Under the pieces are notes generated by a model. That model did no database searches. It saw only the letters and a list, made by a program, of their open reading frames with translations, and was not told the DNA's origin. This document shows, in pieces, positions 17,835-64,000 of a DNA stretch of 64,000 nt; positions within the stretch are counted from its first letter, which is position 1; each line of letters begins with the position of its first letter. Both the position numbers and the translations under genes were made by a program. This DNA comes from Escherichia coli (GTDB lineage: Bacteria; Pseudomonadota; Gammaproteobacteria; Enterobacterales; Enterobacteriaceae), in the NCBI RefSeq assembly GCF_003790525.1, contig NZ_CP033635.1. The stretch is one strand, 5' to 3'.

Positions 17835-18824
17835 TTAGCCACCAATGTACGATAAGTTTTGCGTAATACCGGTGTTGTTTTGATGCAGGAAATGGGTCTG
17901 TTTTTTCTCCCGCAGCGCCGCTGAAATACGCGCTTCCAGCGCCTGTTGCTGGGTATCGTCTTCCAGCAGATCGCGCAGGTTAACGCCGCCTTCACCAAAC
18001 AGGCAGAGATGGAGTTTACCAATGGAGGAAACGCGCAGGCGGTTGCAAGTGGCGCAGAAGTCTTTTTCATACGGCATGATAAGGCCAATCTCTCCGGCGT
18101 AATCCGGATGACAAAAGACTTGCGCGGGACCGTCGCTGCGTTGACGTAATTGGTGGATCCAGCCGCGACGCAGTAGCTCGTCACGCAGAACCTGACCAGA
18201 GATGTGATGCTTACGGAAGAGCTCGCTGCCCTCGCCCGTTTCCATCAATTCGATGAAACGCAGCTGGATAGGGCGATGCTGGATCCAGTTCAGAAAGGTG
18301 TCGAGCTGATGATGATTAACATCACGCATCAGCACGGTATTGACTTTGACCTTCTCAAAACCGGCCTCAAATGCAGCATCGATTCCTGCCATGACCTGGT
18401 TGAATTTATCCTGCCCGGTAATGGCATGAAACTGGCGGGCGTCCAGACTATCAACGCTGACGTTGATGCCAGTAAGTCCAGCATCGCGCCAGTTCGCCAC
18501 ATCGCGTTCCAGACGGTAACCATTGGTGGTGACAGCAATCTGGCGGATAGCGTCGTTTTCTCGCACAGCGGCGATGATATCGGTAAAGTCGCGGCGTAAA
18601 GACGGCTCACCGCCCGTCAGACGGACTTTTTCGGTGCCCAGACTGGCGAAGGCGCGCGTAACCCGGCGAATTTCATCGACGGTAAGAAAGCCTTTATTGG
18701 TGACGCCGCTCGGTTTGTAGCCATCCGGCAGGCAGTAGGTGCAACGAAAGTTACACACATCGGTAATCGACAGGCGCAAGTAGTAAAACTTACGCGCAAA
18801 TGCATCAGTCAGTTGTGAAGCCAT
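17835..18824 (-). CDS. moaA: GTP 3',8-cyclase MoaA (radical SAM, 329 aa)
   Basis: [31 protein letters not shown]... (CxxxCxxC motif); track ORF extends 27 codons upstream from a TTG into the leader; coordinate uncertain by +/-1. Confidence 0.94.
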
Positions 18825-18825
18825 G

Positions 18826-18965
18826 TACACCTTTCCAGATACGGGAGGCGAAGTCATTTCTTCCTTCGCCCTGGTGGCAATCTTTACGAGCATTGTCACG
18901 GCCAAAGCACCGTATCAGTTGACCCAGGTGCAGAGGCTAGAGTGTTTAGTGGTTAAGCCGATACT
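18826..18965 (-). ncRNA. Molybdenum-cofactor (Moco) riboswitch in the moaA 5' leader
   Basis: Structured GC-rich leader immediately upstream of the moaA ATG; position matches the known E. coli moaA Moco RNA element; boundaries approximate. Confidence 0.55.
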
Positions 18966-19023: not shown

Positions 19024-19160
19024 TCATGATCGTGCTATTTCGCTACAGAATAAGGGAAAATGGCGGTTTTACTTTGATATACATCATCAGGAAGGCATAG
19101 CGTACATCGTCCTTTAGAGGTAGAAGAAAATAGTTTGTATCCTCAATATTGGCAGGTTAA

Positions 19161-41695: not shown

Positions 41696-41762
41696 GCGTG
41701 TTGACAATTTGTTATGAAACACGTATCCCTGTCAGTAATCGCTGCACAAAATGGGATATAAA

Positions 41763-61842: not shown

Positions 61843-63411
61843 TTAGCGTGCCGGCTGAGTAGTCGTGGAAGACTGCTCAAAGTGATAGCGACCGGTTTTC
61901 AGGCTGCTTGGGCCGAGGCGTGCAAACTTGAACATTAAGAACAATTCTGCCACCAGGAACAGGGTATACAGGCCGCAAATCAGCACCATTGAGAAGATGA
62001 GATCGCCTGCGGTCAGTGACGAGTTCGCCACAGCTGTCGGTAGCACTTCACCGATAGCCCACGGTTGGCGGCCATATTCAGCCACAAACCAGCCCGCTTC
62101 TACAGCAATCCACGGCAGCGGAATACCGTACAGCGCGGCGCGCAGCAGCCATTTTTTCTCGCCAATGCGGTTGCGGATGACACTCCAGAAAGAGAGCGCG
62201 ATGATTGCCAGCAGCAGGAAGCCACACGCCACCATGATACGGAACGCGAAGTACAGCGGCGCTACACGCGGAATGGAGTCTTTGGTTGCCTGTTGAATCT
62301 GCGCTTCAGTCGCATCAGCCACGTTTGGCGTATAGCGTTTCAGCAGCAGACCGTAACCGAGGTCTTTCTTCATGCTATTGAACTGGTCACGAACCGCCTG
62401 GTCGGTAGAACCAGAACGCAGTTGCTCGAGCAGAGAGTACGCCTTCATCCCGTTACGAATGCGTTCTTCATGCTGCACCATCAGTTCTTTCAGGCCGATA
62501 ACTGGAGTATCCACGGAACGCGTTGCAATGATGCCCAGCGCGTAAGGGATCTGGATCGCAAATTTGTTCGTCTCCTCTTCCTGATCAGGAATGCCGAACA
62601 GAGTAAAGGCAGCAGGCGCAGGTTGCGTTTCCCACTCGGCTTCAATAGCAGCCAGTTTGGTTTTCTGCACGTCGCCCATTTCGTAACCAGATTCATCACC
62701 CAGAACAATAACAGACAGAACGGCAGCCATACCGAAGCTGGCAGCGATAGCAAAGGAGCGTTTAGCGAAGGCGAAGTCACGACCTTTCAGCATATACCAT
62801 GCGCTGATACCGAGGATGAACATCGCGCCAGTCACATAACCAGACGCTACAGTGTGAACGAATTTCACCTGAGCAACCGGGTTAAGCACCAGCTCGGAGA
62901 AGCTCACCATCTCCATACGCATAGTTTCAAAGTTGAAATCGGACGCGATTGGGTTTTGCATCCAGCCGTTCGCAACCAGAATCCACAGTGCGGACAGGTT
63001 TGAACCGAGCGCCACCAGCCAGGTGACACACATATGCTGAACTTTACCCAAACGATCCCAACCGAAGAAGAACAGACCTACAAAGGTGGATTCGAGGAAG
63101 AAGGCCATTAGACCTTCGATTGCCAGCGGCGCACCGAAGATATCCCCTACATAGTGGGAATAGTAAGACCAGTTAGTCCCGAACTGGAACTCCATGGTCA
63201 GACCGGTAGCCACACCCAGAGCGAAGTTGATACCAAACAACTTGCCCCAGAACTTGGTCATATCTTTATAAATCTGTTTGCCGGAAAGGACGTAGACCGT
63301 TTCCATAATGGCCAGCAGGAACGCCATACCGAGCGTCAGTGGCACAAAAAGGAAGTGGTACATCGCGGTCAAGGCAAACTGTAAGCGCGACAGTTCGACT
63401 ATATCTAACAT
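61843..63411 (-). CDS. cydA: Cytochrome bd-I ubiquinol oxidase subunit I CydA (522 aa)
   Basis: [31 protein letters not shown]...; track ORF begins one ATG earlier at 63414. Confidence 0.97.
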
Positions 63412-63554
63412 CATGACTCCTTGCTCATCGCATGAAGACTCCGAGAGTGAACCCCGTTAGAAAGGGTCACACGCATGCCCCAATACAAAATTATTTGCTC
63501 GCCTCTATCGTTGCCATTTCATCAAAAGAGGAAAAGACAATGATAAAAAAGTTA

Positions 63555-63794
63555 CAAATATGTTAATGAATAAACCAAATTGATCCCGTAATTATATTAC
63601 GCCGCAAAATCCTTACAATAAACAGGTTTTTATTGAGCAAATTTGCATTTTTCGACAGTGATCAATTTATAGCGAAATTGTCACGATCTCACCAATTTGA
63701 TCTACGACAATTTATCGTGTTTTGCAGATTTTTTTCAAGAATTAAAAATTGATTTATATCAAAACCAACCAAATATGTTAATTATGTATAAACC
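63555..63794. promoter_or_regulatory. AT-rich cydAB control region with two copies of an AAATATGTTAAT(G/T)...ATAAACC direct repeat (ArcA-box-like TGTTAATTA cores)
   Basis: acaaatatgttaatgaataaacc (about 63555-63577) and ccaaatatgttaattatgtataaacc (about 63769-63794). Confidence 0.4.
63749..63762. promoter_or_regulatory. FNR-type site (TTGAT-N4-ATCAA) in the cydA upstream region
   Basis: ttgatttatatcaa, about 340 nt upstream of cydA ATG in an AT-rich region. Confidence 0.5.
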
Positions 63795-64000
63795 ATAGAT
63801 CATTGGTGATTTTATTGTTAATTTATTGTGAAATATTTATGCAACACAATTATTACAATGAAAAGGTATAGATAAAAAACCAGTGTTTTATTTAACAGAA
63901 CCGCCTTATCCACTTTTTATAATACCAATTGATTAGATTAGCCAATTTGTTGCTATTTTACATAACATATTTTTATCAAAGTTAATTGATTGTTGCCTTT

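Follow-up and report, generated by a model that had tools for sequence, protein, structure and literature searches.

FNR and ArcA sites upstream of cydA in a divergent promoter allele of Escherichia coli

Introduction

Cytochrome bd-I serves Escherichia coli in respiration at low oxygen, and its control by ArcA, FNR and H-NS is textbook microaerobic regulation. The cydAB genes are activated by ArcA under microaerobic conditions and repressed by FNR (Park 2013, PMC3798270; Myers 2013, PMC3688515), with ArcA working by disruption of H-NS (Park 2013, PMC3798270, citing Govantes 2000). In K-12 there are five promoters, of which P1-P4 respond to oxygen, ArcA and FNR (through Park 2013, Myers 2013 and two secondary sources). 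The window analysed here, a stretch of 64,000 nucleotides of E. coli DNA, ends in A/T-rich sequence upstream of cydA, in which an earlier note, made from the letters alone, had pointed out a direct repeat and a palindrome. The question raised by this locus is whether these are the regulator sites of cydAB, a repeat unit with a role of its own, or matches that any A/T-rich DNA might contain.

We conclude, with a probability of about 0.88, that the cytochrome bd-I operon cydABX has its oxygen-responsive control region at positions 63415-64000, seen on the strand opposite to the gene, that the palindrome is the Fnr-1 operator, and that the two repeat copies are two separate elements for phosphorylated ArcA (ArcA-P). 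This rests on how well the motifs score, on their orthology to sites that are bound in K-12 and on their conservation between genera. These are the already known, well-studied ArcA/FNR switches of cydAB, and the finding is correct but ordinary.

Results and Discussion

The locus

The final 586 nt of the window (63415-64000) are non-coding DNA upstream of E. coli cydA. The genes tolA, tolR, tolQ, ybgC, ybgE, cydB and cydA lie on the minus strand in the last 6 kb of the window (ORF list), and GC content drops from ~50% to 22-32% on entering the non-coding DNA, which as a whole has 30% GC. A 701-nt query (63300-64000) finds many complete E. coli chromosomes at 100% identity, and the gene annotated beneath the match is cydA.

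61843-63414, minus strand: cydA coding sequence (ORF list; annotation of the identical strain CP033850)

The open reading frame is counted from the first ATG at 63414; the RefSeq annotation uses the second, at 63411. The remark that the region is cut short at 64000 is borne out, as the intergenic DNA extends for 216 bp more in an identical strain. This extra stretch contains no FNR match above 9 bits and no ArcA match above 11 bits.

The palindrome and a second FNR site surround a promoter-like sequence

FNR sites were scored with a matrix built from 61 ChIP-bound sites (Myers 2013 Table S6, PMC3688515), with cydA's own sites excluded. The two top scores in the whole window both fall upstream of cydA, and a promoter-like TTGAAA-18-TAAATT sits between them.

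63749-63762, unstranded: Fnr-1 site TTGATTTATATCAA, 20.2 bits; centre at -53.5 from P1; K-12 orthologue TTGATATTTATCAA; half-sites invariant
63697-63710, unstranded: Fnr-2 site, TTGATCTACGACAA on the plus strand and TTGTCGTAGATCAA in the orientation of cydA, 14.4 bits; centre at -1.5 from P1
63709-63738, minus strand: promoter P1, with -35 hexamer TTGAAA (63738-63733), -10 hexamer TAAATT (63714-63709) and an 18-nt spacer (promoter scan)

The earlier note had read the palindrome as fitting TTGAT-N4-ATCAA, and it does so perfectly. It is the sole occurrence of this pattern in 64 kb (expected 0.08; at least one occurrence in 8 of 100 shuffles). The FNR training sites range from 11.9 to 21.4 bits (n=61, median 15.2), so that Fnr-1 lies within the range of bound sites, and a score of at least 20.2 bits is reached in 0.1% of 1000 shuffles of the region. 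Judging from the promoter-like hexamers, transcription from P1 would start at ~63702. A start at this position places the two FNR centres exactly at -53.5 and -1.5, and thus the sites correspond to Fnr-1 and Fnr-2 of P1. Fnr-1 aligns column for column with TTGATATTTATCAA of K-12 and Fnr-2 with TTGTTCTCGATCAA, both of which are at the cydA FNR ChIP-seq peak (Myers 2013, PMC3688515). The top-scoring K-12 cydA FNR site is given at -53.5, with earlier binding evidence credited to Cotter 1997 (Myers 2013, PMC3688515).

The CRP/FNR family has dyad-symmetric sites of similar length, and the palindrome might on this ground be taken as the operator of another member, such as CRP. This is exceedingly improbable: the FNR consensus is TTGAT-N4-ATCAA, a matrix made from FNR ChIP-bound sites only places the site close to the top of its range, and its K-12 orthologue is located beneath an FNR ChIP-seq peak.

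ArcA boxes are concentrated upstream of cydA

The ArcA-box matrix was built from 112 boxes of Park 2013 Table S3 (PMC3798270), again without cydA's own sites. Seven boxes of at least 14 bits are found in 63549-63996, versus one in the other 63.4 kb of the window. They fall into three regions, designated sites III and II and distal region I, apart from one box that stands on its own and another that belongs to the second repeat copy discussed below.

63540-63570, plus strand: ArcA site III, three direct repeats ATGATAAAAA / AAGTTACAAAT / ATGTTAATGA; orthologue of K-12 'cydA3'
63549-63566, plus strand: best 18-nt box of site III, AAGTTACAAATATGTTAA, 20.6 bits
63775-63792, plus strand: ArcA box of repeat copy 2, ATGTTAATTATGTATAAA, 16.5 bits
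63784-63836, plus strand: ArcA site II, positional orthologue of the five-repeat 'cydA2' of K-12
63804-63821, plus strand: ArcA box of site II, 14.9 bits
63815-63832, plus strand: ArcA box of site II and strongest of the region, TTGTTAATTTATTGTGAA, 21.0 bits
63841-63858, minus strand: extra ArcA-box match TTGTAATAATTGTGTTGC, 14.3 bits, with no K-12 site assigned
63962-63996, both strands: distal ArcA region I, made up of TTGATAAAAATATGTTAT (minus strand, 63962-63979, 17.7 bits) and AAGTTAATTGATTGTTGC (plus strand, 63979-63996, 14.3 bits)

In site III, 11 bp separate GTTAC at 63551 from GTTAA at 63562, a weak third element is found upstream of them, and the site aligns with GCGTAAAGAAAGGTTGCAAACATGTTAATAA of K-12. 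It holds repeat copy 1 and spans about +17 to +47 relative to the proximal promoter described below. An ArcA site in such a position more usually suggests repression than activation. Site II has repeats starting near 63784, 63795, 63804, 63815 and 63826, with spacings of 11, 9, 11 and 11 as in K-12 cydA2, and elements GTGA (63806), GTTA (63817) and GTGA (63828). Region I is the positional analogue of K-12 'cydA1', in a part where homology to K-12 is undetectable (~50% identity). The strongest cluster (63804-63836, in site II) and Fnr-2 (63697-63710) had both been missed in the earlier note.

That note had also described ArcA-box-like cores in both repeat copies. This stands insofar as both copies score well on the matrix, at 20.6 and 16.5 bits within a training range of 9.8-21.8 bits (Park's boxes, 128 in all); the exact string that was quoted, however, occurs in copy 2 only. 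Exact matches to the older 10-nt consensus WGTTAATTAW are limited to TGTTAATTAT in copy 2 and 50094-50103 in the whole window, and if one mismatch is tolerated there are 16 matches, five of them in the last 440 bp.

The K-12 mngB-cydA spacer can be aligned with the window between ~63787 and the ATG. An end of homology at 63787 was suggested by a first pairwise local alignment and was dropped, since the multiple alignment and the repeat spacing carry the positional homology of the ArcA cores to ~63836. Copy 1 aligns with TTATTAACATGTTTGCAACCTTTCTTTACGC of K-12, which is the reverse complement of Park's three-repeat cydA3 (770526-770556, U00096.2 coordinates). Copy 2 aligns with GATTAACATAATTTG, which adjoins cydA2 (770260-770311) and is not inside it: the K-12 counterpart, ATGTTAATC, is outside Park's predicted cydA2, which begins at the neighbouring ATGTTTCAAT. 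Three ArcA ChIP-seq regions are reported upstream of cydA, in line with earlier footprints (Park 2013, PMC3798270); our comparison with footprints was made through the ChIP-seq site tables of Park 2013 and Myers 2013. The ArcA/FNR control of cydAB that the earlier note had invoked is supported by sites orthologous to those found by ChIP-seq in K-12. Both of the checks that it had proposed gave positive results: the weight-matrix scan returned 20.2 bits for FNR and the two ArcA scores above, and the alignment with the characterised cydA promoter placed the palindrome on K-12 Fnr-1, copy 1 on cydA3 and copy 2 next to cydA2.

Conservation across Enterobacteriaceae

A scan for the CydA N-terminus in species-representative genomes yielded 80 loci, and the upstream regions of 30 of these were scanned with the weight matrices. 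Most Enterobacteriaceae among these 30 share one layout, in which a near-perfect FNR dyad is found at ~-350 with a second 52 bp downstream, an ArcA box is on the non-coding strand at ~-153, further boxes are at ~-420 and ~-407, and a coding-strand box is at ~-590; the last is present in K-12 too. At the level of single positions, conservation was assessed in an alignment of 14 sequences (four E. coli alleles plus ten other Enterobacteriaceae, 10 genera-level lineages). In this alignment both halves of Fnr-1 and the TTG...GATCAAA of Fnr-2 are invariant, with variable flanks around them. In the box of copy 1, GTTAA (63562-66) and GTT (63551-53) are invariant, TGT(T)AA of copy 2 (63776-81) is invariant or nearly so, and the GT cores of site II at 63806, 63817 and 63828 are kept at their 11-bp intervals.

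These data bear on a further alternative, in which the motifs arose by chance in A/T-rich DNA bound by H-NS and have no function that depends on their sequence. At 22-32% GC such DNA does inflate the number of ArcA-like matches. The high-affinity H-NS motif tCGATAAATT (Lang 2007, PMC2094087) is matched at 9 of 10 positions by ACGATAAATT (63709-18), overlapping the -10 hexamer of P1, and this match does not exceed chance, since matches with at most one mismatch number 4 in the window against 4.5 expected; for K-12 cydAB, H-NS binding is described in the literature. Shuffles of the region contain a mean of 0.23 ArcA boxes of at least 14 bits, as opposed to the 7 observed, and none of 1000 reaches seven; the FNR score is matched or exceeded in 0.1% of them. 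Moreover, the cores are invariant across genera while their A/T-rich surroundings diverge, and ChIP-seq shows occupancy of the orthologous sites in K-12. A chance origin of the motifs is therefore hardly credible.

The repeat pair is best read as two ArcA elements

The motif ending in ATAAACC, which was said to occur twice about 215 bp apart, is present exactly as claimed: CAAATATGTTAAT is found at 63555-63567 and 63770-63782, 215 bp from start to start. It is trailed by ATAAACCA at 63570-63577 (after a gap of 2 nt, GA) and at 63788-63795 (after a gap of 5 nt, TATGT), a difference that amounts to a 3-nt indel.

63555-63577, plus strand: repeat copy 1, CAAATATGTTAAT-GA-ATAAACCA, overlapping repeats two and three of ArcA site III
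63770-63795, plus strand: repeat copy 2, CAAATATGTTAAT-TATGT-ATAAACCA, at -68 to -93 from P1, with the 16.5-bit ArcA box listed above

The core is TGTTAATGA in copy 1 and TGTTAATTA in copy 2, with ATGTTAAT common to both. The first ArcA element of copy 2, ATGTTAATTA, is perfect; the second half-site is weak, as 11 bp on from the first is TATAAA, and the nearest TGTAT is at 9 bp. Chance controls were carried out on 2000 dinucleotide-preserving shuffles of the 586-nt, 30% GC region for repeats, and on the first 1000 of these for the weight matrices. An exact repeat of at least 13 nt appears in 2.0% of the shuffles, the composite of 13-mer plus 8-mer in 0.4%, and two occurrences of ATGTTAAT in 0.75%. 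The bare repeat is thus mildly to moderately unusual; the same motifs taken as regulator sites are far beyond chance.

With its 13 nt + 8 nt in two copies 215 bp apart, the extended repeat could be a functional unit in itself, for example a pair of identical operators that loop the DNA. Its rarity in shuffles speaks for this, as does the arrangement, in which the two copies flank P1, both FNR sites and the proximal promoter. The 13-mer identity is, however, absent from the other E. coli alleles and from the other genera of the 14-sequence alignment. Even the closest E. coli variants differ in the repeat flanks, MSHS133 with one substitution in each copy and S12 with TGTTAACC at copy 2, so that the extended identity is conserved in neither, while other genera hold the TGTTAA core only. 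The K-12 positions equivalent to copies 1 and 2 have ATTAACAT alone in common. In addition, the place of TGTTAA within the best box changes, from second repeat in copy 1 to first in copy 2, and 215 bp is ~20.5 helical turns, so that the copies would face opposite sides of the DNA. A role for the extended repeat as a unit is therefore very unlikely.

Alternatively, a promoter module of ~230 bp, consisting of an ArcA site and a promoter, might have been duplicated in tandem long ago and have left the repeat as a relic; such an event would also account for the multiple promoters of cydAB. Collinear weak repeats are in fact present between 63555-63640 and 63770-63900, at offsets of 215, 218, 240 and 258. 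Similarity past the regulator core does not significantly exceed that of shuffled sequence: a local alignment of 63530-63680 with 63745-63920 scores 20.5, against 15.7 +/- 2.8 in shuffles (z = 1.7; 6.5% equal it), and the aligned part consists of the repeat itself and A/T-rich flanks. A duplication of this kind is highly improbable.

As the longer 13-mer identity is unconserved, the "direct repeat" comprises two independent ArcA elements and is not a repeat unit. To take it as a unit was an over-reading, the TGTTAA cores alone being conserved, and the identity beyond the core (13 nt + 8 nt) is best taken as a coincidence between two A/T-rich ArcA elements.

Proximal promoter and leader RNA

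A second promoter was found by the promoter scan between P1 and cydA.

63591-63618, minus strand: proximal sigma-70 promoter TTGTAA-16-TATAAT, 10/12 matches
63446-63469, minus strand: leader hairpin (GUGACCC...GGGGUUCAC)

This promoter predicts a start at ~63585-63587 and a leader of ~172 nt. In K-12, mapping places the orthologous start at 770509 and gives a leader of 172 nt (Kim 2012 supplement), and the same coordinate is that of an anaerobic sigma-70 peak (Myers 2013 Table S2, PMC3688515). The promoter block AAAAACCTGTTTATTGTAAG is near-wholly invariant in the 14-sequence alignment, with one G-to-A change in Mangrovibacter.

The leader hairpin varies in sequence between genera with its pairing kept, and 7 pairs are changed on both sides according to RNAalifold. 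It is followed by 35 invariant nucleotides (~63412-63445) that hold the Shine-Dalgarno sequence, with whose GGAG a CUUC can pair. Folded as a single sequence, the final 99 nt of the leader do not exceed shuffles in stability (z = 0.18). Rfam has nothing relevant at the leader, either in the region (E-value threshold) or in the whole window (gathering threshold); the sole match, to a plant miRNA (E = 0.6), is spurious.

A divergent promoter allele

Among complete E. coli genomes, 5,425 of 5,426 match the promoter of the window, and by identity they fall into three groups. Identity of at least 95% is found in ~1,139 genomes, O157:H7 included, and identity of 90-95% in ~1,103. The K-12 type accounts for ~3,131 genomes, in which the proximal 373 nt alone align, at ~80%.

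From -375 to -130, the cydA promoter alleles of the window and of K-12 are 79.1% identical, as are the window and Citrobacter (79.1%). Over the final ~90 nt of the leader, the window and K-12 alleles do not differ. The coding DNA of cydA and cydB is 96-100% identical per 100 columns between window and K-12, mostly at least 98%, and one and the same CydA protein accession is found in all alleles. The genes in the sucD-cydA interval vary as well: K-12 has mngR-mngAB, MSHS133 has a single TPR gene, and the strain of the window has hut genes, a methylaspartate-pathway cluster and two hypothetical genes, transcribed divergently from cydA.

The sequence dimorphism of the promoter haplotypes is directly observed. 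Tentatively, the cydAB control region may exist as ancient haplotypes within E. coli, each tied to a gene island of its own in the sucD-cydA interval. The window-type haplotype retains the arrangement of FNR and ArcA sites with markedly stronger ArcA boxes in sites II and III than K-12, and might set a different oxygen-response curve of cytochrome bd-I in different lineages; a functional difference between the haplotypes is speculation. A literature search for an earlier description of cydA promoter alleles retrieved nothing specific, and PMC5302844 contains no promoter map.

The sites themselves add nothing new, and the motif reading of the earlier note was sound. The analysis does provide a base-level map for a non-K-12 allele that roughly one complete E. 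coli genome in five carries, O157:H7 among them. Experimental work has all been on the K-12 allele, in which about one base in five is different, and predictions about cydAB for strains of the window type rest on the conservation of the sites.

Proposed mechanism

ArcA and FNR binding, the direction of regulation and anti-silencing against H-NS are transferred to the allele of the window by analogy with K-12 studies. On this analogy, phosphorylated ArcA would bind the multi-repeat sites II and III and the distal site I (63962-63996) under microaerobic conditions, and would raise transcription mainly through displacing H-NS from the 22-32% GC DNA, as described in the K-12 literature. Copy 2 would then form the promoter-proximal edge of site II, here taken as 63775-63836 (about -73 to -134 from P1), and copy 1 would act as the third direct repeat of site III, which falls within the leader, shortly after the proximal promoter. 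Under full anaerobiosis, the oxygen-labile FNR dimer would partly repress through Fnr-1 and Fnr-2, the latter overlapping the P1 start. The anatomy, with FNR dyads at -53.5 and at the P1 start, ArcA sites upstream, in the leader and distally, and an A/T-rich setting, agrees with the K-12 account.

Comparison with K-12 and other known systems

The closest known system is the cydAB region of K-12, which has the same operon and order of elements, with Fnr-1 and Fnr-2 52 bp apart around a TTGAAA/TAAATT promoter, three ArcA regions at ~-150, -370 to -420 and -550 to -600 from the ATG, and the proximal promoter block. The K-12 allele differs in having ~79% identity to the window from about -375 to -130, and ~50% further upstream, without detectable homology. 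ArcA sites II and III are stronger in the window (21.0 and 20.6 bits versus 12.5-14.9 in K-12), whereas site I is weaker (17.7 versus 20.4 bits). The upstream neighbour also differs, being a divergent hypothetical gene with the methylaspartate-pathway cluster in the window type and mngB in K-12.

The ArcA operators of Park 2013 (PMC3798270) likewise consist of (T)GTTA direct repeats spaced 11 bp from centre to centre, with 3 to 5 repeats per site, and Park's cydA operators resemble those of the window in that sites II and III are on the strand opposite to cydA. In contrast to these operators, the core ATGTTAAT of copy 2 is 9 bp from the next element, compared with 10-11 bp. Other promoters with two FNR sites, such as ndh and yfiD (Myers 2013, PMC3688515), similarly combine one dyad over the start and one upstream with co-regulation by ArcA; however, the 52-bp spacing and the positions -53.5/-1.5 are peculiar to cydAB.

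Allelic variation upstream of cydA

Within E. coli, sequence polymorphism runs deep in the control region of cydA. Positions 63500-64000 of the window were compared with the K-12 loci L001 and L088, and with the loci L003 and L004. Across -375 to -130 relative to the cydA ATG, window-type and K-12-type sequences share ~79% identity, which equals that of E. coli with Citrobacter, and farther upstream than -375 the two types are unalignable. The final ~90 nt of the cydA leader are identical in the two types, and identity in the cydA and cydB coding DNA is 96-100% per 100 columns. The K-12 type was counted in ~3,131 genomes, the window type in ~1,139, and a variant with 90-95% identity in ~1,103.

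The sucD-cydA interval, which continues beyond the end of the window, is a hotspot of variable gene content. Its genes were compared in the window-identical strain (L002), K-12 (L001) and the loci L086 and L087, and include the following:

K-12: mngR-mngAB
Strain MSHS133: one TPR-repeat gene
Window-identical strain: hut genes, a methylaspartate mutase/ammonia-lyase cluster and two hypothetical genes

In the window-identical strain, the gene nearest to cydA runs divergently from it. Thus, the distal ArcA boxes (63962-63996) lie within a shared divergent control region.

Conserved elements of the cydA leader

In the alignment of 14 Enterobacteriaceae sequences, blocks of the leader (63574-63680) are near-fully invariant, with conservation exceeding that of the FNR sites. 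These blocks, and a hairpin closer to the cydA start codon, are:

about 63652-63675: block TATAAATTGATCAC.GTCGAAAAA
about 63612-63631: block AAAAACCTGTTTATTGTAAG, at the proximal promoter
63691-702 and 63574-85: two occurrences of the block GATCAAWTTGG
63446-63469, minus strand: cydA leader hairpin, with pairing kept and sequence varying between genera

The hairpin is followed by 35 invariant nucleotides, in which a CUUC is able to pair with the Shine-Dalgarno GGAG. No Rfam family matches this region as a whole (63412-63475, minus strand). Together, the hairpin and the invariant stretch may constitute a translational or RNA-stability element.

Other features of the window

Further features were found with Rfam, with the FNR and ArcA-box matrices, and among the open reading frames:

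18812-18956, minus strand: Moco riboswitch
19074-19087: FNR-matrix match TTGATATACATCAT (16.2 bits)
41698-41715, plus strand: ArcA-box match GTGTTGACAATTTGTTAT (15.1 bits)
53709-54300 and 55227-55365: six clustered tRNA genes (minus strand; Rfam) and the CpoB/ybgF intercistronic RNA thermometer (Rfam, 140 bits), reported under these coordinates
57247-58527: TolA ORF, with a long repetitive central domain rich in alanine, lysine and glutamate

This TolA domain also gives rise to extended open reading frames on the complementary strand, which are spurious. In the scan of the 64-kb window, GTGTTGACAATTTGTTAT is the sole ArcA box of at least 14 bits outside the cydA region. The FNR-matrix match sits directly upstream of the Moco riboswitch, and is the reverse complement of ATGATGTATATCAA, the ybhK/moaA FNR site in the list of Myers et al. 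(PMC3688515).
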